A DNA stretch of 64,000 bases from Candidatus Zhuqueibacterota bacterium (GCA_049322915.1 JBMOPW010000001.1:1-64000), one strand, 5' to 3'. Counted from the first letter of the stretch, positions 301 to 11,376 are shown. Notes: generated from the sequence alone by a model not told the origin. Made by a program: numbers and translations.

Positions 301-487
301 CAATACAAAAAGTATCGAATTTATTGCACATGATTTCAACTGGTCATTCATATTAAATAGCTAAATTTGATTATAAAAATCCATTTTAGAAATCAAAGTG
401 GTATTTTTAAAAATTCATTTTAGAATGACAGGCAGTCATTCAAACACCCGGCAAAATACGGGTGCATCGAACATTGGAGAAAAATTC

Positions 488-1906
488 ATGATAAAGCTCA
501 TCATTGAAAAGGAACTGCGCGACATCATTGGTTCGACCAAGTTTGCGGTGACGTTTGGCGTATGCGCGGTTCTCATTTTACTCACTTTTTATGTGGGAGC
601 GAAAAATCACCAGCTCCATGTGGCGCGCTACGAAGCAGCTCGGGCGGAGAATTTCCGAAAGATGGAAGGGCTGACCGACTGGCTGCGTGTGAATGACCAT
701 CGGATTTTCCTGCCGCCGCAACCATTGGAGTCCCTGGTGACCGGCGTCTCCAACGATATTGGCCGCACCATTGAAATGCGGGGGCGCGGAGAACTCCATG
801 CCGTGGACAGCCGATTCAACGACGATCCCATTTTTGCCGTGTTCCAGTTTCTGGACCTGAATTTTATCTTCACCATTGTGCTCTCGCTGTTCGCCATCCT
901 GTTCGCGTTCGACGCCATCAGCGGGGAGAAAGAGCGCGGCACGCTGCGGCTGTCGTTTTCGCACGGCGTCCCCAGAGACAAGTATATTCTGGCCAAAGTG
1001 GCCGGCTCGTTTCTGGCGCTGAGCATTCCCTTGCTCATTCCCATCCTGTTGGGGGCGATGCTCCTTCCGGCGCTGCATGTTTATTTGACCGGCGAGGAAT
1101 GGATCCGGCTCGGCCTCATCTTTCTGGTCGGGCTGCTGTACTTCGGCGTATTTCTGACCCTGTCGATTTTCGTCTCGGCGCTGAATAGAAAATCATCCAA
1201 TGCCTTTCTCACGCTGCTGGTCATCTGGATCGCTGCTGTCTTCATTATGCCGCGCTGCGCTGTGCTGCTGGCAGGCCGGGCAGTGGAGGTCGCTTCGGTG
1301 GATCAACTGGCGTCTCAAAAGAGCCGCTATCGCGCGCAACTCTGGAAGGAGGATCAGGATCGGTTGGCCAGTTACAAGCCCAAACCGGATGGGGATCCCC
1401 AGGCCATCATGCAGGAATTCAATTCGTTCATGCAGGAGCTGGCGGACGCACGGAATGAAAAGCTTCAGCAGCTCACGAACCGGTTGAATGAGGAGCGCCG
1501 TAACATGCAGGTGCAGCAGGAGCGTCTGGCATTTGGCCTGGCGCGAATTTCGCCCAGCGCGCTGTTCTCCCTGGCCGCGTCGTCGCTGGCCGGCACATCC
1601 ATCGATGTGAAGCAGCATTTCCTGGTGGAAGCGAACGGCTATCAGGGCGCCTATTCGCATTTCATGAAAGAGAAGACCGGATTGAACCTGGGCGGCGATG
1701 TCATCCTGTTTCGGGTGGAAAACGATGGGGATGATGAAAAGGAAAAAGCCATCGATCCCAGGGAATTGCCCGAATTCGCCTATCATAAAACGCCGCTGCC
1801 CGAAGTGTTGAACGCATCCATGCTGGATGTGGGGTTGTTGATCCTGTTCAACATCCTGTTTTTTGCCGGCGCGTTCGTCGCGTTTCTCCGGTATGATGTG
1901 CGTTGA
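488..1906 (+). CDS. ABC-2 type transporter permease with a large extracytoplasmic loop
   Basis: Starts MIKLIIEKELRD; motif DAISGEKERGTLRL..PRDKYILAK; multiple TM helices; ends FLRYDVR; ggaga RBS before ATG 488. Confidence 0.85.
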   Translation: MIKLIIEKELRDIIGSTKFAVTFGVCAVLILLTFYVGAKNHQLHVARYEAARAENFRKMEGLTDWLRVNDHRIFLPPQPLESLVTGVSNDIGRTIEMRGRGELHAVDSRFNDDPIFAVFQFLDLNFIFTIVLSLFAILFAFDAISGEKERGTLRLSFSHGVPRDKYILAKVAGSFLALSIPLLIPILLGAMLLPALHVYLTGEEWIRLGLIFLVGLLYFGVFLTLSIFVSALNRKSSNAFLTLLVIWIAAVFIMPRCAVLLAGRAVEVASVDQLASQKSRYRAQLWKEDQDRLASYKPKPDGDPQAIMQEFNSFMQELADARNEKLQQLTNRLNEERRNMQVQQERLAFGLARISPSALFSLAASSLAGTSIDVKQHFLVEANGYQGAYSHFMKEKTGLNLGGDVILFRVENDGDDEKEKAIDPRELPEFAYHKTPLPEVLNASMLDVGLLILFNILFFAGAFVAFLRYDVR

Positions 1907-2055
1907 CTCAGGAGGAGGAACAGCGTTGGGGTCGTGCGGCGAGCCGATGGTATTCATGGCGAACCATTGGACCCGAATTTGTCCCGGAGCAGGATTGCTG
2001 CCTTAAGCGGCGGATCAGGAATTGAACCGATGATGTATTCATAAAGGATAAAAAC

Positions 2056-3522
2056 ATGTTTGGCGCACTGATTGAAAAAGAATTAAAAGGTATGTTTCTG
2101 GGCCCCAAATTTCTCATGACGTTTGGCGTGTGTTCCCTGCTGATATTGCTCAGTCTCTTTCTGGGGATTCAGGATTACCGCGCAGCCGTGAGCGCATACC
2201 AGGCCGGCAACCAGTTGGTCGACCAGGAAATGCAGGAAAAAACCTCATGGATGTCGCTCAGCACGCGAATTTACCGCGAACCCAATCCCATGCAGATTTT
2301 CATTGCCGGGGTGAATCACGATATTGGCCGCTATGCCGGCATTCACCCCACGGAGCCGATCAAATTGACCAACAGCGTCTACTCGGATGATCCGATTTTC
2401 GCCGTGTTCCGGTTTCTGGATTTCAGCGTGATCGTGCAAATTGTACTTTCATTATTCGCCGTGCTGTTCACCTACGACGCCATTGCCGGGGAGCGGGAAA
2501 ATGGGACGCTCAGCCTGGTTTTCTCCAATGCCGTGCCGCGATTGAAATACATTCTGGCGAAATTTATCGGCTCCTGGCTGGGTATGGTCGTGCCGTTGCT
2601 GCTTCCATTGCTGTTCGGAATGCTCATGATTTTCCTGTTCCGGATTCCGTTCACCCAGCAGCACTGGCTGCAAATTGGCGCCCTGTTTGGGGCGTCGCTG
2701 CTGTACTTCACGTTTTTCATCGCGCTGGGGATTTTCATTTCTTCCCTGACGCGCCGCGCGTCCGTGTCGTTTCTGATTCTGCTGGTGGTCTGGGTGACCT
2801 GCGTTTTCATTCTGCCGCGCATCGGCGTGATGATGGCCGGAAATTTCTATCCGGTGCCGTCAGCGGCGGAGATCGACGGGCAGATTGAAGGGTATTCCAA
2901 AGATCGCTGGGATCGCTATATCCAGGCCATGGAAGAGACGATGAGGAAGCGGAATGCGGAAATGGAAGGCCTGTCGGAATCGGAGCGAGAAGCCTATCGC
3001 GAGGCGCATTTATGGGAATGGATGCAGGAGAGCGATTCGCAGCGCAGTGGAGTTCAGGCCGACATCAATGAATTTTCCCGCAAGCTGAACGAGACGCAGC
3101 GAAATAAGCAGGCGGAGCAGGAGCGGCTGGCTTTTTCCCTGGCGCGAATTTCCCCGGCTGCGGCGTTTCAACTCACGGCCATGAATCTGGCGGAGACGGA
3201 TATCCGGCTCAAATCGCGGTTCGGGCAGTCGCTCGAAACGTATCATGCCAGCTTTGTCGATTATGCCGATCAGAAGCAGAAAGAGGGCGGCATGGGGGGA
3301 GGCATTCAGATTACTTTTGATTCGAATGATGGAATGAGATTTTCTTTCGGTCGCGACAAGGGCAAACTGGATGTGAGCGGACTGCCCCGCTATCAGTCCC
3401 CGGGCCGCTCCGTGATGCAGATTCTTCACCCGGCGCTGATGGATTTCACGCTGCTCGCCGTCTACACCCTGCTGGCGTTGACCGGCAGCTTTATGGCGTT
3501 CATGAAATACGATGTGCGGTGA
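2056..3522 (+). CDS. ABC-2 type transporter permease, paralogue of the upstream gene
   Basis: DAIAGERENGTLSL; shares DDPIFAVF and LARISP with the upstream permease; ends MKYDVR. Confidence 0.85.
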   Translation: MFGALIEKELKGMFLGPKFLMTFGVCSLLILLSLFLGIQDYRAAVSAYQAGNQLVDQEMQEKTSWMSLSTRIYREPNPMQIFIAGVNHDIGRYAGIHPTEPIKLTNSVYSDDPIFAVFRFLDFSVIVQIVLSLFAVLFTYDAIAGERENGTLSLVFSNAVPRLKYILAKFIGSWLGMVVPLLLPLLFGMLMIFLFRIPFTQQHWLQIGALFGASLLYFTFFIALGIFISSLTRRASVSFLILLVVWVTCVFILPRIGVMMAGNFYPVPSAAEIDGQIEGYSKDRWDRYIQAMEETMRKRNAEMEGLSESEREAYREAHLWEWMQESDSQRSGVQADINEFSRKLNETQRNKQAEQERLAFSLARISPAAAFQLTAMNLAETDIRLKSRFGQSLETYHASFVDYADQKQKEGGMGGGIQITFDSNDGMRFSFGRDKGKLDVSGLPRYQSPGRSVMQILHPALMDFTLLAVYTLLALTGSFMAFMKYDVR

Positions 3523-3866: not shown

Positions 3867-4712
3867 TTAAGCCGATGGGCCGGAAGAGTCGTTCTGATCT
3901 TCATCCCAGTAGCTTTTCACGCCATTGTTGTAATCAAACCATTCGATATAGCCGGAGAAGTCGCTGGAATTCCAGTAGATGGTGTTGGTTTTGTTAGCCG
4001 ATGCATCGAAGAATGTCAGCGAATTGTCCACTCCGTTTTCCTCGTACTTCAGCGTATCACCATAATCGGGACTGGCTTGTTTGATGTTCGAGAAAATCAA
4101 ATGCTTGTGAACGCTATCCTGAATGGCCCATTCGATTTTCAGGACTTCCAGATTCGAGGTCGGATTTAAATCGTCGTAGAACAACCACCAGCCTTCTTCA
4201 TTGCCAATAGTGGCGCGACCAGTGTACCAGAGGAAATGGTCTAATTGCGGCACGTGGGTATTGCTGGTGACGTAGACTTCCCAGACGACTTCGGAGTTGG
4301 GAATATCCACCCAGCCAGCCAGATCCACGCCGAACGTATTGAGCCCATGCTGCACGCTATAGGTCCAGTGAAATTTACCATCGCGCTCCAGTTCCGGCTC
4401 TTTGTCCAGACCAACGGCTGAGATGAAAATCGCCGTGGGGACAATGCTCGCCAATACAATGCCGGCATTGATGAACCACACGCGGAATGCAGCCGCGGTG
4501 AAATTATTCTTCGACATGGCGGATTTGGCCAGAGAGTTGCCGGGCGTGTTATCGAAGAACGAGAGCTCCAATTGCATCGATTCAACCGGGGGGAGAGTCG
4601 GCGGCGTCTTCTTTTCCGGCTCCGCCGGGTTTTTATCGCAGCCTGAAATGCTGATTAAAAATATCGATACGACTGCAAGTATCAAATTTTTGTTTCTGAA
4701 AAATGTGGTCAT
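3867..4712 (-). CDS. Lipoprotein of unknown function
   Basis: Signal peptide with lipobox ISG-C, Pro-rich linker, aromatic/beta-rich mature domain; ggagg RBS. Confidence 0.8.
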   Translation of the reverse strand: MTTFFRNKNLILAVVSIFLISISGCDKNPAEPEKKTPPTLPPVESMQLELSFFDNTPGNSLAKSAMSKNNFTAAAFRVWFINAGIVLASIVPTAIFISAVGLDKEPELERDGKFHWTYSVQHGLNTFGVDLAGWVDIPNSEVVWEVYVTSNTHVPQLDHFLWYTGRATIGNEEGWWLFYDDLNPTSNLEVLKIEWAIQDSVHKHLIFSNIKQASPDYGDTLKYEENGVDNSLTFFDASANKTNTIYWNSSDFSGYIEWFDYNNGVKSYWDEDQNDSSGPSA

Positions 4713-4740
4713 GGTGGCCTCCTTGTAATGTTGTCACTTG

Positions 4741-5454
4741 TTAGTTCTGGTTTAATTTTTTAATTGCTGTTTGGGCCTGGTCAACCCAGGGCGCCTGGCA
4801 GTTCTGATTTTTGTGCCGTTGAATGGCTTCATCGTAAGCATCCAGGGCCTGGCCATTTTTGTTCAAAGCCTCAAACGATTTGCCTAAGTAAAAATGGATC
4901 TCTCCACAATCTTCAATATCGGGATATTTCCCTAATATTTTATGGAGTTTCACAATGGTGTTGGGATAAAATTGCTGATCGTACAGTGCTCTGGCCCCGT
5001 TTTTTTCCCAGGCCCATTTGTCCGAATCCGATGCCGGGGAAGCGGCCTCTTCGTTCCGGGTCCTGGCTTCTCCGTGAACCACGCTCACATTCCCGACCTT
5101 CAACTGCGTCTTCTCCTTTCGCGGTTCGATCCGCTCCACTTTTTTGGACATGAGGAAGAGGAACAATTCCTTTTCTGTGATATGGCGGATATCCAGCACA
5201 TCCAGGCTCGAGTTGCTGTACAGCGTGAATGTCTTTCCGTCGTGAGTCAACAGCTCGACCCGTCCGTCCGGGCCGGTGATGATAGTGTCAATTTCCTCCA
5301 GAATCTGTCCCGGCGCGGCCGGCTGCCAGGTCTCTTCAACGCCGGGGCGCACATTGACAGCGCCGGACAATCTGACGATTTTTACCGTGTGTTGCGCCTG
5401 CGCCTGTTGGGCGAGAGTGAACATGATGATCAACCAAATCCTGAATGCTTTCAT
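4741..5454 (-). CDS. Exported FecR-like domain plus TPR protein
   Basis: Signal peptide (AQA); FecR-like VKIVRLSGAVNVR..W.PA..GQ.L...DTIITGPDGRVEL; C-terminal TPR (EIHFYLGKSFEAL...ALDAYDEAI); start reassigned to the ATG after the ggag RBS. Confidence 0.7.
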   Translation of the reverse strand: MKAFRIWLIIMFTLAQQAQAQHTVKIVRLSGAVNVRPGVEETWQPAAPGQILEEIDTIITGPDGRVELLTHDGKTFTLYSNSSLDVLDIRHITEKELFLFLMSKKVERIEPRKEKTQLKVGNVSVVHGEARTRNEEAASPASDSDKWAWEKNGARALYDQQFYPNTIVKLHKILGKYPDIEDCGEIHFYLGKSFEALNKNGQALDAYDEAIQRHKNQNCQAPWVDQAQTAIKKLNQN

Positions 5455-5552
5455 ATTATTTTCTCCCATGGGGCCTGAACACGTTCTGCCCGTTTTGTGA
5501 TGATTGGTAATGCGCTTGCCTTGTGAACAGGGCGAAAGCCTGTCCTTATCGG

Positions 5553-7148
5553 TCATTCGATATCGATGATGCGAACCCAGCCCTGTTCCAGGCCATTTTC
5601 GACCATACCTTCTTTCAGGTAATTGGTCGCGCCGGTCTTCCAGGCCTGTTCGAATCCCTGTTGAATGAGCGTCGTTTCCACCGGAATCCAGACCGTGCTT
5701 TTCCCGCTGGCTCTCTCGCGCACAATGAATCGCTTTTCGTTGCTGCTGATGACATGGGCCTGTGCCGGCTCCATCCCTGAATCGAACATCAGGTACAAAT
5801 GAGCGATGTCCTGCTGCGGATTTTTAACCTCAATGAATGCAGTTTTTATGCCAAGGCTTTCCAGCAGCGATGCGTACAGTACGACCAGATCGTCGCAGTC
5901 GCCGTGGCGCAGGTGCAGCGTCTCTGTCGCATATTGCACGCGATCATCTTTGTAAAACAAAATGTTGGGATCGCTGATGTACCGAATGTCATGCGACTGC
6001 AAGGCATCGAAAATGAGCTGCGCTTTTTGAAAATTACCGGAACCAGCCAGGTTATCGAAGAGGTGGCTCTGGATAGCGGCGCGCGAGAAGTCCAGGATTT
6101 CCGGGTTGTCCGGGGTGACGAAGAGTCCCAATTTATCCATGTCGCCATTCCAAGCGTTCCGGTTGTGAACCATGATGTGCGCGCTGATTTCACGGGTGAG
6201 GGTTCGTCCGGCGCGCGCTTCGATGGAAATGTCCAGAACGGCCGGCTCGCGCTGTTCGGCGTTGAGCAGCGAATTCCCGAAAATGGCCGTGACCGGAATG
6301 TCCTGTGTTTTTCCGCGATCGATGTGGTAGGAGGGACTCTCCTTGACCCGCTCGGAATAGTGTTTGATCGAACTGCGAATTTTGACATCAATGGGATAGC
6401 CGGCGACGTTTTTCACCGAAACCAGGGCCAGCGGGTAGGTGTTGTAAAACTGGTAATACGCCGGATAGATGTCAGTCACCACCAGTTTTATGTCTTTGAT
6501 CTGAAAAATCTCGCGCTTCTGGCCCCACATCACATTGAAGCCGAAGGCAAACTCCAGACCGCTGTAGTCTTTTTCAAATTGAAAATCGACGAAGTGATAT
6601 TTTGTATCGAAGTTAAGCGCGAACCAACTCGCCAGAACCAGGTTAACGCCTCCGCCGGCATAAGCGCCCCATCGCGACGATGACTCGAGCGTCGCTTCCA
6701 GCCCGGTGCTTTCACCTTTGATGCTCGTGGTCCAGTAGGGACCCCCACCGACCGAAAGATAGGGCTGCAGCGCACTGGGGAATCTTGTGGTTAAAAGATC
6801 GTATCGGACGCCGAACAGCAGCGGAACCACGGCGGAAATTTCAGTGCTCTGTGTGCCCCAAATGGTGTGCTCCTCATGGGCGCCACCCACAGCACCGAAA
6901 CTCATTTCCAGAAACCAATTTTCATGCGCGCGCGAGAAAAAGTAAATGCTTGCCCCGGCGCCGCCAATGTCGACAGTAGCTTGCTGGCCGTAGAAAGATG
7001 AGTTGATTGCCGTGGGGTGATTGGTCACATTCCAGAATCCAATCCGCAGACCAATGCCGGACGAACGAACTAACCCCTGAGCTGCCGCCTGGCCAGACAT
7101 CAGGAGAAGGAAAGAGAACATGAACGTTCGGATCGAAATTTTAACCAT
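5553..7148 (-). CDS. Outer-membrane beta-barrel fused to a transglutaminase-like (Cys-His-acid) domain
   Basis: Signal peptide; residues ~25-210 align by eye with the neighbouring 222-aa barrel; C-terminal GDCDDLVVLYASLLESLGI..HLYL..WIPVETT. Confidence 0.75.
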   Translation of the reverse strand: MVKISIRTFMFSFLLLMSGQAAAQGLVRSSGIGLRIGFWNVTNHPTAINSSFYGQQATVDIGGAGASIYFFSRAHENWFLEMSFGAVGGAHEEHTIWGTQSTEISAVVPLLFGVRYDLLTTRFPSALQPYLSVGGGPYWTTSIKGESTGLEATLESSSRWGAYAGGGVNLVLASWFALNFDTKYHFVDFQFEKDYSGLEFAFGFNVMWGQKREIFQIKDIKLVVTDIYPAYYQFYNTYPLALVSVKNVAGYPIDVKIRSSIKHYSERVKESPSYHIDRGKTQDIPVTAIFGNSLLNAEQREPAVLDISIEARAGRTLTREISAHIMVHNRNAWNGDMDKLGLFVTPDNPEILDFSRAAIQSHLFDNLAGSGNFQKAQLIFDALQSHDIRYISDPNILFYKDDRVQYATETLHLRHGDCDDLVVLYASLLESLGIKTAFIEVKNPQQDIAHLYLMFDSGMEPAQAHVISSNEKRFIVRERASGKSTVWIPVETTLIQQGFEQAWKTGATNYLKEGMVENGLEQGWVRIIDIE

Positions 7149-7406
7149 GTTTTATTCCTTGTGGTTCAATGGGTGTATCAAGTGAATATATCGACTCACA
7201 GAGCCTGGTTTCATTGAGTGAATTTACTCTGCATCGACATCGTGAGTCGTGATTTGAATCATTCGCCGTACAAAAAACTGATCCTGGAGTGAAGGCCTGG
7301 TGTTCCGGGCAGTGAGAAGAAGTCGCCTGTCGTGTGTTTCACTGCCTGGAAATCCCATAGCGTTGACGATTGACCGCACTCGAAAATTTCGCGACTGCGG
7401 ATGGGG

Positions 7407-8075
7407 TTACAGTTTGTAATCTCCCCACATCACGCAGAGACCAAATCCCCATTCATAGCCGCTGTACTTGTGATTTTTATTGAAATCGATGAAATGGTAT
7501 TTCATGTCGATATTCATTCCCAGCCAACTGGTGAGCATGAAATTCGCGCCGGCGCCGGCATAGCCGCCGCGATTGAATTCCGTACTCACGGTTACTTCTT
7601 CATGAAATGCAGTCTGTGTGACGTTCACCGTGGAGATCCAATACGGCCCTCCGCCGAGGGAAATGTACGGCCGAAGACCGCTCTGATTTTCCGCAGAGAG
7701 CAGTTCATATCTGAGTCCCAGCAGGATGGGAGTGACGGCAAATACGTCGACATTCTGTTCGCTTTCATAGTAATTGTAATAATCACTGGTTGTCTCTTCA
7801 ACATTCCCGATGGCGCCGAATGACAATTCGAAAAACACGTAATCGTTCACGCGGGAGAACAGGTACAGCCAACCGCCTCCGCTGCCGACGCTCACTGATG
7901 AATTGCCGAAATGATTGGACACCGATACCAGCTCCGGATTGTCCGACATTTTCCAGTATGTCCCCCGAAATCCGATTCCCGTGGATTTTGGTTCGATGGA
8001 CCAGACAAGCGACGCTGATGACAGTAGCATCAGGCCTGCAACAATTGCAACGCATTTCATAAATGATGGTTTCAT
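7407..8075 (-). CDS. Small outer-membrane beta-barrel protein (OmpW/OmpA-TM-like)
   Basis: Signal peptide; amphipathic strands (RPYISLGGGPYW, GGYAGAGANF, NIDMKYHFIDF); ggaggt RBS. Confidence 0.8.
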   Translation of the reverse strand: MKPSFMKCVAIVAGLMLLSSASLVWSIEPKSTGIGFRGTYWKMSDNPELVSVSNHFGNSSVSVGSGGGWLYLFSRVNDYVFFELSFGAIGNVEETTSDYYNYYESEQNVDVFAVTPILLGLRYELLSAENQSGLRPYISLGGGPYWISTVNVTQTAFHEEVTVSTEFNRGGYAGAGANFMLTSWLGMNIDMKYHFIDFNKNHKYSGYEWGFGLCVMWGDYKL

Positions 8076-8132
8076 TTTACACCTCCGATATGGTTAGACT
8101 TCCTGAATCACTTGCTTGCTGCGATGACTACA

Positions 8133-8149
8133 TGCAAAGGGGATGCCAA
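8133..8149 (-). promoter_or_regulatory. Sigma-54 (-24/-12) promoter of the barrel operon
   Basis: Minus strand reads TTGGCATCCCCTTTGCA, i.e. GG-N10-GC with near-consensus TGGCA..TTGCA, about 60 bp upstream of the start at 8075. Confidence 0.8.
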
Positions 8150-8233
8150 TTCCATTTTCGGAAAAGTGTGAGCGATTAATCCCATATTTTGAATGACATA
8201 ATTCATTGAAGAAAGGAAATGGCTGGTATTCCC

Positions 8234-8294
8234 GGAATGCGGAAATTACCTGGAGTGCGGAATTATTCCTCAGTTCAGCGCGCGTCATTTCCGC
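8234..8294. promoter_or_regulatory. Candidate upstream activator sequence (enhancer) for the sigma-54 activator
   Basis: GGARTGCGGAA direct repeat (8234, 8252); near-palindrome TGCGGAAT-T-ATTCCTCA (8256-8272); inverted half-site ATTTCCGC (8287); all about 85-145 bp upstream of the -24 box. Confidence 0.5.
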
Positions 8295-8338
8295 TTTGAT
8301 CCGAAGCCGGAGGGGCGCTCTTTGAAGCTTCTCAAATG

Positions 8339-8697
8339 AACCGCAGCGGTCGCGAAGGGCGCAGAGAAAAGACCAGGTTTGAATTGGCCAGAGTGATTAT
8401 AAATTTTCAATCAAACAATGAAAATCATGTTCACCCCTAGTGCGCTAAAGCGCAAGTGAAACGTCAGACGTGAGAAGTGAGATGTAAAACAATATTCGTT
8501 TGGCATTTCACTTTTCATTATGTGTTAGAAGGGATTCCCGTGTTGTATTAAAACATTTTGCACAAAAATTCAAAAGTTATGTTGTAATACTATAGTCACA
8601 GAAGACCAGAACAACCAGGAAAATACCTGGTCTCATAAGATTGCAAACAGCTTTTTTTCAACACCAAAACGCTGCGTACCTCTGCGACCTCTGCGTT
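8339..8697. repeat. Degenerate inverted CGCAGAG-type repeats flanking an AT-rich segment that holds a heptamer tandem repeat
   Basis: aaccgcagcggtcgcgaagggcgcagag (8339) versus cgctgcgtacctctgcgacctctgcgtt (8670); agtgaaa-cgtcaga-cgtgaga-agtgaga at 8455-8482. Confidence 0.5.
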
Positions 8698-8775
8698 AGA
8701 AAAGATATGGGTAAGGATGAGCCTTTTTCGGACAGACACTACTTTTTGAAACCGGCCGCAGTGCTTTTGGGAGCG

Positions 8776-11376
8776 TCAATGTTGATCCTCGTGAGAAAGG
8801 TGTTCGATCAGTTGCTGCAAATGCGGATGATATTTTTTGGGCAGTCCTTTGAATGAGGAGGACACTTTTTTAGCATTTTCCGGGTCATGCGAATTTGAGA
8901 CAAGGCTCCTGACATTGGCGATGTATTCCTCAATTTTTTCGCGCACGCGGTCGAGCACATCGGTCTTATCGCAGCCAGCGATGGACCGGGCGGCGCTTTC
9001 AGTGTCAAATTGCTGCTGAACCACATGCTCGAAACAGATGCCGCGGAAATATTCGGTGACAGTGCCGCGGTCGCGATTGCCCAGCGCTTTGGCAGTCTGC
9101 GAAATGGCGGATCGCGAAAATTCGAAGCGACGCAGCATGTCCAGTATCTGTGCTTCCAGCGGCTGGAAAAGAGTCTCCGCCGGCATGACCGGTTCGTGCG
9201 TCTGCAATTCATCGCCCAAATCCGTCTCCCGCACGAAATTTCGATTGTCGCTTTTGGCCAGAATGGCAGCCCGGCGAATGATGTTCTCCAGTTCGCGCAC
9301 ATTGCCCGGCCAGCGATGACGTTGCAAAATTTCCATGGCCCGATCGGAAAAAGAGGTCACCTCGGAGTGGCCGTGCTTTCGCAAAAAGTGCGATGCTAAC
9401 AATGGAATATCCTCTGTCCGTTCCCTCAGCGGAGGTATCGATATGGGGAATCCATTGAGGCGGTAATAGAGATCGGATCTGAACCGACCGCTGTTTTTCT
9501 CATCCTGCACATTGCGGTTTGTCGCGGCGATGATGCGCGCGTCGGTTTTGATGGTCTGTTCTCCGCCCAATCGCTCGAATGCGCCTTCCTGCAGGACGCG
9601 GAGCAGCCGGGTCTGAAAGTGAGGCGTGGTCTCGGTAATTTCATCGAGAAAGATGGTGCCGCCCTGAGCCAGTTCGAATCGGCCATGCCGGCGCGTTTGC
9701 GCCCCGGTGAAACTGCCTCGTTCGTGGCCAAATAGCTCGCTCTCCAGCAGCGTCTCCGAGAGAGCGCCGCAATTGATCGCCACGAAAGGCCGATCCGCTC
9801 GCGGGCCGGTCTGGTGAATGGCATGGGCAATGAGTTCCTTGCCGGTGCCGGTCTCGCCCAAAATGAGCACCGGGATATTGTCGGCGCTGACCTTTGCGAC
9901 CAGTTCCAGCACGGCCGCCATTTTGCTCCCGGGCGAATGGACGATGTCGGCGAATTGCAGCGTCTTGTGCTGGCGCTGCGGCAGGATGTACGCCTTCAGA
10001 TCGCGCAGCTCTTTCTCCATCTGGAGGATCGAAGCTTTTTGTTCCGATGCAACGAGCTGGCTCTTTTCGGAGATGGAATATTCCTGCTGAAGCTGATCTT
10101 CCAGTTCTGCAAGCCTGGCCCGGGATTCCGCCAGTTGTGTTTCCCGCGCAGCGACTTCGCGTTCCAGCAACTGTTTCCGGGAATCGGTCTGCAACTGGCG
10201 CGTTTTAATTTCCTGAATGGCGAGGAAGAAGAAGGCTGCAAAATAGGCCACCGTCGGATAGCACAACGGCAGAGCCTGATTGGCTTGCTGAAAAAATATC
10301 ATGGCGAAAATCCAGTACAGCGCCGGAACGAGGAAGGCGCTTGCGATGCGGAGCGCCATGTTCCGGCTGGAACGGGTCAGCAGCGGCAGCAAGCCCAGAA
10401 TGACGATGAGAATCCCGTGAAGCAGCGCGGAATAGTCGCGGATGAAATTCCGGTGAATGATGTTTTCAGCCACTGTGGCGTGAATGAGACTGGCCGGCAG
10501 CAGAGAAGCGAGCGGGGTGGAAATCATCGGGGAGATGCCCGGCGCAGTCACCGCGATGATCACCAGTTTGCCGGTGAAATTCAATGAGTCCGGCGCGGAC
10601 TCATGGGCTTTGAGCAGATCGACAAAACCGTGCGCGGTCACATTGTGCAGATCACCGAAATGGTTGAGCCGCATCTGTCCCCATTTATCCACCGGGATGG
10701 AGATGGGCTTTCCGGCCTTCGTCGCAAAAACGATGCGGTCGTCTTCGAATGTCGCAGCGGCCGGGCCGTTGAAATAGAGCCTCGCCAATTCCGCGCCGAA
10801 CGACAGCAGGACGCTGTCCGACAGAGTGGCCGTCAGCGGCACAGTACGGCTGAATACCTCAGCGCTGAAATTGCTGAATCCCAGTCCGGCAGCCGACCGG
10901 GCGATTTCCCGCAGCGGGGCGGTCGGCCCGATCCCGTGCGTGGAAGGCGTGGATCCGCGCTCGCGCGGCTTCTCCAGTTCGGAGAATTTTATCGGCAGAC
11001 AGACATTGCCGGCGGTAGCCAACATGTCGGCCAGATTGCTTTCGAACTCCGGGTGGCGTTTATCCATTGTGTCGAACAGAACATCGATGCCAATGGTGTG
11101 CGCGCCGGCAGCACAGAGGATGTGGGTCATGTAGCCGTAGTAGTCCCGCGTCAAAGGCCAGCCCAATGCGTTGATATCTTCGTCGCCCACGAAAACGAAA
11201 ATGATGTCATCAGCCAGGCGCCTGTCGCCTCGCATCCTGAATTGAACATCGATGAAAGCGTTGGAGATGGCGTCATTCCACGGGAAGGGCAGCGCGGAAA
11301 GCAGGAGCAGCGCGCAGAGAATCACCAGCAGGCCAATCAAAATAGGATGTTGCATGTAAGAAAAATGGGTCATCAT
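8776..11376 (-). CDS. Membrane-bound CHASE2-like sensor fused to a sigma-54-dependent activator (bEBP)
   Basis: N-terminal TM; CHASE2-like segment (IIFVFVGDEDINALGWPLTR, IGIDVLF, GKLVII, IHATVAENI); three TMs; coiled coil; AAA+ (GETGTGKE, ESELFGHERGSFTGA, LDEI, RSDLYYRL, WPGNVRELEN); HTH-like end; no receiver domain. Confidence 0.9.
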   Translation of the reverse strand: MMTHFSYMQHPILIGLLVILCALLLLSALPFPWNDAISNAFIDVQFRMRGDRRLADDIIFVFVGDEDINALGWPLTRDYYGYMTHILCAAGAHTIGIDVLFDTMDKRHPEFESNLADMLATAGNVCLPIKFSELEKPRERGSTPSTHGIGPTAPLREIARSAAGLGFSNFSAEVFSRTVPLTATLSDSVLLSFGAELARLYFNGPAAATFEDDRIVFATKAGKPISIPVDKWGQMRLNHFGDLHNVTAHGFVDLLKAHESAPDSLNFTGKLVIIAVTAPGISPMISTPLASLLPASLIHATVAENIIHRNFIRDYSALLHGILIVILGLLPLLTRSSRNMALRIASAFLVPALYWIFAMIFFQQANQALPLCYPTVAYFAAFFFLAIQEIKTRQLQTDSRKQLLEREVAARETQLAESRARLAELEDQLQQEYSISEKSQLVASEQKASILQMEKELRDLKAYILPQRQHKTLQFADIVHSPGSKMAAVLELVAKVSADNIPVLILGETGTGKELIAHAIHQTGPRADRPFVAINCGALSETLLESELFGHERGSFTGAQTRRHGRFELAQGGTIFLDEITETTPHFQTRLLRVLQEGAFERLGGEQTIKTDARIIAATNRNVQDEKNSGRFRSDLYYRLNGFPISIPPLRERTEDIPLLASHFLRKHGHSEVTSFSDRAMEILQRHRWPGNVRELENIIRRAAILAKSDNRNFVRETDLGDELQTHEPVMPAETLFQPLEAQILDMLRRFEFSRSAISQTAKALGNRDRGTVTEYFRGICFEHVVQQQFDTESAARSIAGCDKTDVLDRVREKIEEYIANVRSLVSNSHDPENAKKVSSSFKGLPKKYHPHLQQLIEHLSHEDQH

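Follow-up and report, generated by a model that had tools for sequence, protein, structure and literature searches.

How might a bacterium connect an event at its outer surface to a sigma-54 promoter without a kinase, a cyclase, or a receiver domain? The question is raised by positions 3867–11,376 of a 64,000-nucleotide stretch of DNA from Candidatus Zhuqueibacterota bacterium (GCA_049322915.1 JBMOPW010000001.1:1-64000), here called the window. One gene at this locus encodes an activator in which a periplasmic CHASE2 sensor is joined to a sigma-54 ATPase, and genes downstream on the same strand encode two outer membrane barrel proteins, a periplasmic adaptor, and a lipoprotein (Table 1). We lean toward reading the activator, the larger barrel protein, and the adaptor as a three-part envelope relay that has a sigma-54 output and would induce its own components.

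The five minus-strand open reading frames that a first-pass annotation of the window had proposed were borne out, with one revision. The adaptor had been started at 5556; the most likely start is the ATG at 5454, which gives a protein of 237 amino acids (aa) identical to database protein P0241.

The activator and its predicted enhancer and promoter

The annotation had read the activator as CHASE2 fused directly to a sigma-54 ATPase, and family searches agree. Pfam places CHASE2 at residues 21–329 (115.6 bits, cut-off 26.3), Sigma54_activat (PF00158) at residues 484–645 (225 bits), and an AAA lid (PF25601, 80 bits) in the protein, and it detects no kinase, cyclase, or receiver family at E ≤ 0.1. 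The order of parts is a transmembrane helix (TM1, ∼11–29), periplasmic CHASE2, TM2–4 (∼312–387), a coiled-coil linker, the AAA+ module, and a family-specific C-terminal domain. By hydropathy, CHASE2 is bracketed by one plus three hydrophobic helices in 82 of 130 homologs and by one plus two in 41. Walker A, Walker B, arginine finger, and sensor II motifs are intact across all 130. The GAFTGA-type loop reads GSFTGA here and in 112 of these homologs, and GAFTGA in 14; GSFTGA is also listed for DVU3220, an activator with a regulon. Within the coiled-coil linker, two conserved residues are 85 positions apart in 95 of the 130, and the distance varies mostly by 3, 4, or 7. This steady helical register suits a mechanical relay.

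The C-terminal domain carries a conserved segment (residues 756–779, 130 homologs) that resembles a helix-turn-helix (HTH), and a lead to HTH_8 was weak (Atlas score 0.85, under the bar). Used as a query, this tail retrieved 223 clusters among 1.84 billion representatives, and all 59 distant full-length proteins scanned that share it contain both CHASE2 and Sigma54_activat. By every sequence test except a family-level HTH match, the activator is a sigma-54 enhancer-binding protein. Its CHASE2 domain has no relative in the PDB at E ≤ 1 (phmmer). The source genome (6.25 Mb, 96% complete) contains rpoN and four CHASE2 proteins, and its Sigma54_activat matches (40 strong among the 43 listed) indicate an unusually rich sigma-54 network. 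A second type of membrane-bound sigma-54 activator was seen at loci L094–L097, where proteins of ∼930 aa with the same C-terminal domain and a dCache-like sensor adjoin TonB-dependent receptors.

A GG-N10-GC promoter and repeated enhancer sites had also been proposed downstream of the activator gene. The putative promoter is found as TGGCATCCCCTTTGCA at 8148–8133, and the candidate enhancer is a palindrome with a third half-site (8272–8238). Within the window alone, box and palindrome are at the level of chance, with one match each against 0.6 expected and with 45 and 42 of 100 shuffles reaching that count. Their significance comes instead from conservation elsewhere. When 29 sites from other genomes were used to train a matrix, it gave the window's pair the top rank among 50 candidates across the whole source genome. 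Upstream regions share the palindrome YGCGGRA-N3-TYCCGCR, in most cases followed ∼18 bp later by a third half-site, then a spacer rich in AT (68% versus 52%) and a TGGCA-N6-TTG box, with the enhancer 100–126 bp ahead of this −24/−12 box. A strict composite pattern, from which the window's own site is one base off, occurs in 55 of the 167 genomes surveyed from the phylum. Of these 55, 52 encode the activator, one more encodes the other two parts of the module, and two lack the system. The reversed pattern matches nowhere in the 167. Pattern matches in G072 and G073, which are genomes without the system, fail the matrix and were rejected.

The spacings between enhancer and box cluster at about 100–105, 111–116, and 122–126 bp (R = 0.84 at 10.5 bp, n = 30), which is what DNA looping predicts. 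For another 35 spacings, partly constrained by the search pattern, R is 0.80. An IHF-like consensus (one mismatch) is present in 14 of the 30 spacers; this count has no control and is not used as evidence.

Of the barrel/adaptor operons that lie apart from their activator gene, 20 were retrieved, and every one has the element in front of it. It stays with distant operons and thus marks targets rather than the regulator gene. Most of 15 further sites lie ahead of genes for barrels, TonB-dependent receptors, Toastrack lipoproteins, an S41 peptidase, or an FG-GAP/FlgD protein, and one has no clear target within its short contig. Judged from their sequences, the targets are surface or envelope proteins. 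The proposal that the system induces itself also gained support, since a predicted sigma-54 promoter with its own enhancer precedes the genes for the upstream relay components. A candidate second target in the source genome, before a hydrogenase/dehydrogenase-like operon (C34:240679), was rejected for its lower score and off-phase spacing of 99. Scans for sigma-70 promoters and terminators were uninformative, with terminators no commoner than chance, and a search for RNA runs listed none. The gap between the activator and first target genes is 700 bp here and 218 bp in a same-genus genome; ∼450 extra AT-rich bases lie ahead of the enhancer (window 8320–8775).

The conserved module and its predicted adaptor–CHASE2 interface

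Which genes belong together was examined in the 167 genomes with three queries: the activator C-terminal domain, the immunoglobulin-like (Ig)–transglutaminase part of the larger barrel protein, and the adaptor. Genomes with weak matches only (4 of 75, 8 of 76, and 1 of 70) were dropped. Three short fragments of the larger barrel protein (hereafter the barrel-protease) that showed high identity were retained, which left 71, 68, and 69 genomes. All three core genes are found in 66 genomes, none in 95, and a subset in 6, and presence is patchy within families. In 67 of 67 genomes, no more than 5 kb separates the barrel-protease gene from the adaptor gene.

Co-conservation had been predicted for five genes, and it extends to the activator, the barrel-protease, and the adaptor, not to the lipoprotein. 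The latter occurs in 58 of the 167 genomes, many without the system; it is a passenger because it adjoins the module in only 3 of the 58. In other genomes, the corresponding position is occupied by Toastrack lipoproteins, by TonB-dependent receptors with DUF4249 partners, or by other barrels. It matches no Pfam or NCBIfam family and falls in Atlas clusters without a name. Its gene starts 28 bp past the adaptor gene, and the two are probably co-transcribed in the source genome. The 222-aa barrel, usually encoded by the first gene of the operon, is 39% identical to the barrel of the 531-aa barrel-protease. Export signals had been assigned to all four downstream products; the N-termini appear signal-peptide-like or lipoprotein-like, a judgment made by inspection only.

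The barrel-protease is modeled (predicted local distance difference test [pLDDT] 87.9) as an OmpA/OmpW-like eight-stranded barrel (24–211), an Ig-like domain (213–328), and a transglutaminase-like domain (334–531). The last scores 23.1 bits against PF01841 (cut-off 23) and matches the fold of 3KD4 (Z 11.2, root-mean-square deviation [rmsd] 3.1, 136 residues). All 114 sequences examined retain its residues C418, H450, and E491 as well as a GDCDDL motif. By analogy with OmpA, this enzyme domain would face the periplasm. An antiphage ProA model aligned with residues 273–511 (42.8, cut-off 1500) reflects a shared domain only. Barrel-protease genes are apparently broken or split at L046 (in G135), L138, and L225; the broken gene and the lack of an adaptor match in G135 suggest decay of the module there.

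The adaptor consists of a beta subdomain (24–85), a conserved helix (94–109; 94–107 in the structure model), a flexible linker with the conserved sequence VSVVHG (123–128; consensus among adaptors GNVSVVHG), and TPR helices (143–236). Its model has a pLDDT of 88.4, with low confidence in the linker that holds VSVVHG. The annotation had called it a FecR–TPR adaptor. The TPR part holds, whereas Pfam FecR gives E = 0.076 here and matches none of 123 adaptors at E ≤ 0.01. Because no member matches Pfam FecR, “FecR-like” applies to one subdomain only: the resemblance is confined to the first 65 residues, and a profile of this subdomain finds FecR-like proteins in the source genome. A LipL45 model matches 34 of the 123 adaptors, and the retention-module model NF033682 matches 63 at E ≤ 0.01, the window's adaptor scoring 21, under the cut-off of 50. 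The best structural match of the beta subdomain is the adhesin retention domain 5IX9 (Foldseek E = 0.002, TM score by target 0.74; alignment Z 9.2, rmsd 3.0, 75 residues). No FecR structure is among the fold matches listed for the adaptor, and its PDB sequence search returned TPR-type matches only.

Contact between adaptor and CHASE2 had been suggested, and structure prediction favors it. CHASE2 (31–311) paired with the adaptor (22–237) gives a predicted complex scoring 0.84, and the best of three controls scores 0.00. The runs agree in at least 90% of contacts, with a pLDDT of at least 83 for the partners. In the model, adaptor residues 94–109, 115–122, and 198–204 touch CHASE2 at ∼78–85, 107–121, and 243–259, and this predicted interface includes residues that are each at least 90% conserved (D78, Y79, Y82, and E110 of CHASE2; F98, L99, and K105 of the adaptor). 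The prediction supports binding without showing it. It does not support the FecR-like subdomain as the part that binds CHASE2; the predicted binding part is the helix that follows this subdomain. The beta subdomain and the VVHG motif lie outside the modeled interface and may be free for another partner, such as the enzyme domain of the barrel.

Table 1. Positions of module features and neighboring sites in the window
Feature	Position	Strand	Basis and remarks
One-component activator, 866 aa, core	8776..11376	-	Pfam; hydropathy and motifs in 130 homologs
CHASE2 domain, residues 21–329	10390..11316	-	Pfam; predicted adaptor groove including D78, Y79, Y82, H85, E110, L255
AAA+ core, residues 484–645	9442..9927	-	Walker A GETGTGKE, GSFTGA loop, Walker B, arginine finger
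Activator C-terminal domain, residues 721–866, HTH-like segment 756–779	8779..9216	-	Conservation; presumed enhancer-binding part
Enhancer palindrome TGAGGAATAATTCCGCA, one mismatch to TGCGGAA-N3-TTCCGCA	8256..8272	-	Conservation, matrix
Third half-site TTCCGCA, 18 bp past second	8238..8244	-	Conservation
Putative sigma-54 −24/−12 promoter TGGCATCCCCTTTGCA, 124 bp from enhancer start	8133..8148	-	Box and matrix; GG 8147–8146, GC 8135–8134
Small outer membrane barrel, 222 aa, target	7407..8075	-	Pfam OMP_b-brl, 33.1 bits
Barrel–Ig–transglutaminase-like protein, 531 aa, core	5553..7148	-	Pfam, structure model (pLDDT 87.9), alignment
Periplasmic adaptor, 237 aa, core	4741..5454	-	Alignments, structure model, complex model
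Lipoprotein, 281 aa, family without name, passenger	3867..4712	-	No Pfam or NCBIfam match

Two tandem ABC-2 permease genes with DUF3526 (window 398–3522, plus strand) are convergent with the operon and are not among the conserved neighbors.

Named homologs are labeled KSB1 or Calditrichota. The same gene order occurs in Calditrichia/Calditrichaceae records (29 of 78 loci examined, overlap with the phylum search not removed), and the tail search names distant members in Ignavibacteria, Melioribacteraceae, and Bacteroidota. Among 80 Ignavibacteria-like metagenome loci, 35 have 6 kb of downstream sequence, and 17 of these encode a barrel–Ig–transglutaminase protein together with an adaptor. At the Ignavibacteria-like loci, 37 of 39 first target genes have a TGGCA[CT] box ahead of them, compared with 51 of the 467 remaining genes. 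The enhancer matrix fails on these loci, and a pattern search for the catalytic His gave no match in 23 of their proteins. By eye, repeats resembling CAGGCA, CATGCA, or TGTACA, ∼21 bp apart and often with an inverted copy, stand before the sigma-54 box at L229–L308; no clear correspondence was seen between HTH segment and type of repeat.

Related arrangements were also seen. A divergent second copy of the module, present in some genomes (L129, L130, and L093), comprises an activator, a 603-aa exported protein, a transglutaminase-like protein of 615–669 aa, and a 214-aa adaptor. In a sister module (L321, G000:C35:141000-160000, and L322–L340), a larger barrel, PorV/FadL-like by eye, is joined to Ig, GDCDDL transglutaminase-like, and TPR parts. 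At 15 of 20 loci fetched, this gene is followed by a CHASE2 gene, whose output is a sigma-54 ATPase in four; six of seven other CHASE2 proteins scanned carry a CHAT protease. The sister family's position beside CHASE2 proteins of differing output ties the enzyme domain to CHASE2 signaling and not to a single regulon. The sister sigma-54 activator of the source genome has 979 aa and stands beside CHAT–TPR and propeller–FlgD proteins. At G000:C26:52281-58916, also in the source genome, a 736-aa CHASE2 protein follows a FecR-like protein and an 844-aa probable outer membrane protein.

A proposed relay and its rivals

The relay that we propose has four steps. On the evidence of the sequences, and with very high probability, the activator is an inner membrane protein with an intact sigma-54 ATPase, and a conserved enhancer and −24/−12 promoter stand before the operon for barrel proteins, adaptor, and variable surface proteins. 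The conserved helix of the adaptor (94–109) would then, as we think likely from the complex model, dock in the conserved groove of CHASE2. On a narrow balance, we also expect that CHASE2 acts by way of the membrane helices and coiled coil to hold the ATPase in check, that docking lifts this restraint, and that the membrane-bound ATPase assembles on the three-half-site enhancer, where a DNA loop would open the promoter. More barrel, adaptor, and surface proteins would result. In the last and weakest step, the barrel would be the input: its cysteine-protease-like domain might hold or process the adaptor and free it on a surface cue, with the flexible VSVVHG linker as the candidate processing site. 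Any control of the adaptor by the barrel through catalysis is a tentative idea, falling a little short of an even chance. Because all targets are envelope proteins, a surface-bound macromolecule or outer membrane damage is favored as the cue. The activating sign of the adaptor is taken from Sinorhizobium meliloti, where, in the available text of PMC5498481, CyaD1 lacking CHASE2 is constitutive and where, in the accessible parts of PMC7529298 and PMC13001267, the NsrA barrel and the CHASE2 cyclase are both needed for signaling.

Several points weigh against the proposed relay. It rests on sequences and models. The activator tail has no Pfam HTH match, and the Atlas search named no family for it. 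The 30 phased spacings were drawn from 42 palindromes (at most two mismatches), chosen for a box and a target gene in range. Kinship among the genomes makes co-occurrence and phasing statistics overstate, and P values were given no weight. The activator gene lies within 8 kb of the barrel-protease gene in 29 of 66 genomes, farther away on the contig in 5, and on another contig in 32, in part because assemblies are fragmented. A 99% complete genome (G064) has adjacent activator and adaptor genes and no barrel-protease match, and a 95% complete one (G034) has the activator alone. At the 35 Ignavibacteria-like loci, 8 have the barrel gene only and 10 have neither gene. The third position of the catalytic triad is an invariant Glu (E491, in WxPxETT), not the usual Asp. 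The threshold against which the complex score is read was attained by 116 of 157 solved pairs and by 2 of 215 mismatched ones, a calibration that is only roughly valid with custom alignments and is silent on affinity or sign. Overall, interface columns are modestly more conserved than the rest (0.61 versus 0.49; 0.62 versus 0.53).

The rival that survives best reverses the sign. The adaptor would clamp CHASE2 off, the protease domain of the barrel would destroy it under envelope stress, and its induction would be negative feedback. CpxP and ZraP clamp their sensors off as periplasmic inhibitors. Such a role would fit an adaptor encoded in the induced operon, and the predicted interface spans both sides of the flexible linker (94–122 and 198–204), so that cleavage of the linker would divide the binding surface in two. 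Toastrack lipoproteins, tied to envelope-stress systems in the available text of PMC11237479, are frequent targets, but the proteins discussed in that text are argued to be intracellular, whereas those here look like lipoproteins. The S. meliloti relay, in which loss of CHASE2 turns the output on and the outer membrane partner is needed, fits an activating ligand instead, and we consider an inhibitory adaptor unlikely.

Another possibility is that the barrel–transglutaminase-like protein is an effector that cross-links or trims envelope proteins, while activator and adaptor suffice for signaling and the adaptor senses a periplasmic cue. G064 retains exactly these two parts, and co-regulation alone would yield co-occurrence. 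However, the other targets are freely gained and lost, whereas the barrel-protease accompanies the adaptor in every one of the 67 genomes, even with a different barrel type, and the sister family precedes CHASE2 proteins with other outputs. An effector role alone is thus improbable. It is still less credible that the activator works only once freed by intramembrane or juxtamembrane proteolysis as a soluble ATPase–HTH fragment, for although a ring tethered by four helices on looped DNA would seem sterically demanding and some membrane regulators are cleaved (PMC11484849, in the text available), the activator has no conserved neighboring protease and its linker keeps helical register.

The proposed relay can be extended, although we regard the extension as doubtful. 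In what would be a new class of trans-envelope signaling, an outer membrane cysteine protease switched by its barrel would process a periplasmic messenger protein whose helix is the CHASE2 ligand, driving a membrane sigma-54 ATPase with no second messenger or phosphorylation. Barrel-protease and CHASE2 would together serve as a general input unit to which different outputs, such as a sigma-54 ATPase or a CHAT caspase-like protease, can be attached, and sensing of protein helices might be a general property of CHASE2 domains. The accessible text of PMC5192318 describes the ligand of CHASE2 domains as unknown, and how the barrel reaches CHASE2 is left unsaid in the available parts of the rhizobial papers (PMC7529298, PMC13001267). 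At this locus, the confidently predicted interface with a small soluble partner points to specific residues for mutation. A membrane-spanning sigma-54 activator also raises the question of how a tethered ATPase could form its ring on looped DNA. The parts, enhancer, and promoter fit in 7.5 kb and could be rebuilt in Escherichia coli, and an orthogonal activator–enhancer pair under the control of a periplasmic protein might find use as a tool. A further result is a regulon of surface proteins, defined for ∼40% of the genomes in an uncultured phylum.

Comparison with known systems

FecA–FecR–FecI is an outer-to-inner-membrane relay that induces its own outer membrane part. The proposed relay resembles it in this respect, and the first-pass annotation had taken FecARI as its model. 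That analogy does not carry over to the parts: the core barrel is eight-stranded and OmpA/OmpW-like, there is no core TonB-dependent transducer, extracytoplasmic function (ECF) sigma output, or membrane-anchored anti-sigma factor, and only a subdomain is FecR-like. Genes for TonB-dependent receptors and ECF factors are occasional neighbors of the module.

LapG is transglutaminase-like, as is the enzyme domain here. In the available text on LapG/LapA/LapD of Pseudomonas (bioRxiv 10.1101/198937), a periplasmic protease likewise stands beside a protein with an N-terminal retention-module fold and a flexible linker. Unlike that system, the present one has no dialanine motif ([T/A/P]AA[G/V]), giant RTX adhesin, type 1 secretion, or LapD; its protease-like domain is fixed to a barrel, and its output is transcription.

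With NtrC, NorR, PspF, and ZraR, the activator shares the AAA+ core, the GAFTGA-type loop, and an upstream enhancer in helical phase with a −24/−12 promoter, and the three enhancer sites recall NorR as described in the accessible text of PMC2831303. One-component enhancer-binding proteins sense through GAF or PAS domains, according to the available part of PMC4641369, whereas the protein here has a periplasmic input domain, spans the membrane, and ends in a family-specific C-terminal domain. Like ToxR/CadC-type regulators (PMC10269533, available text), it is a single protein that would sense outside and bind DNA from the membrane; unlike them, it must hydrolyze ATP as an oligomer on looped DNA. 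Neither CHASE2 nor Sigma54_activat appears among the main-text terms searched or in the supplements of PMC10269533, as far as that source was available. No description of this system was found in the literature covered, which excluded subscription journals and bioRxiv supplements, whose domain-architecture tables could list the fusion.

Other CHASE2 loci come closer. In the accessible text of PMC5192318, Burkholderia BiofilmReg and PA4035-type LysM–FecR plus CHASE2 kinase loci encode a secreted FecR-like/TPR protein beside a CHASE2 receptor, as here, and magnetotactic MtxA with a CHASE2 cyclase (PMC4439547, available parts) follows the same theme. In those texts the output is a kinase or a cyclase, no barrel-protease is described, and no contact between adaptor and CHASE2 is proposed.

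Closest in working is NsrA–CyaK. In the NsrA–CyaK/CyaD1/CyaD2–Clr pathway, as in the relay proposed here, transcription responds to an outside signal by way of an outer membrane barrel and an inner membrane CHASE2 receptor. FecR-like and TPR parts are built into NsrA itself, whereas here the barrel is small with a transglutaminase-like domain and the adaptor is a separate soluble protein. The targets of the NsrA pathway include FecR-like and TPR proteins (PMC5498481, available text). The output here is a fused sigma-54 ATPase, with no cyclase domain, cyclic AMP, or Crp-type factor. The locus differs on defining features from NsrA–CyaK, the Burkholderia and magnetotactic loci, FecARI, and LapG/LapA, and we rate it a new variant of CHASE2 trans-envelope signaling.

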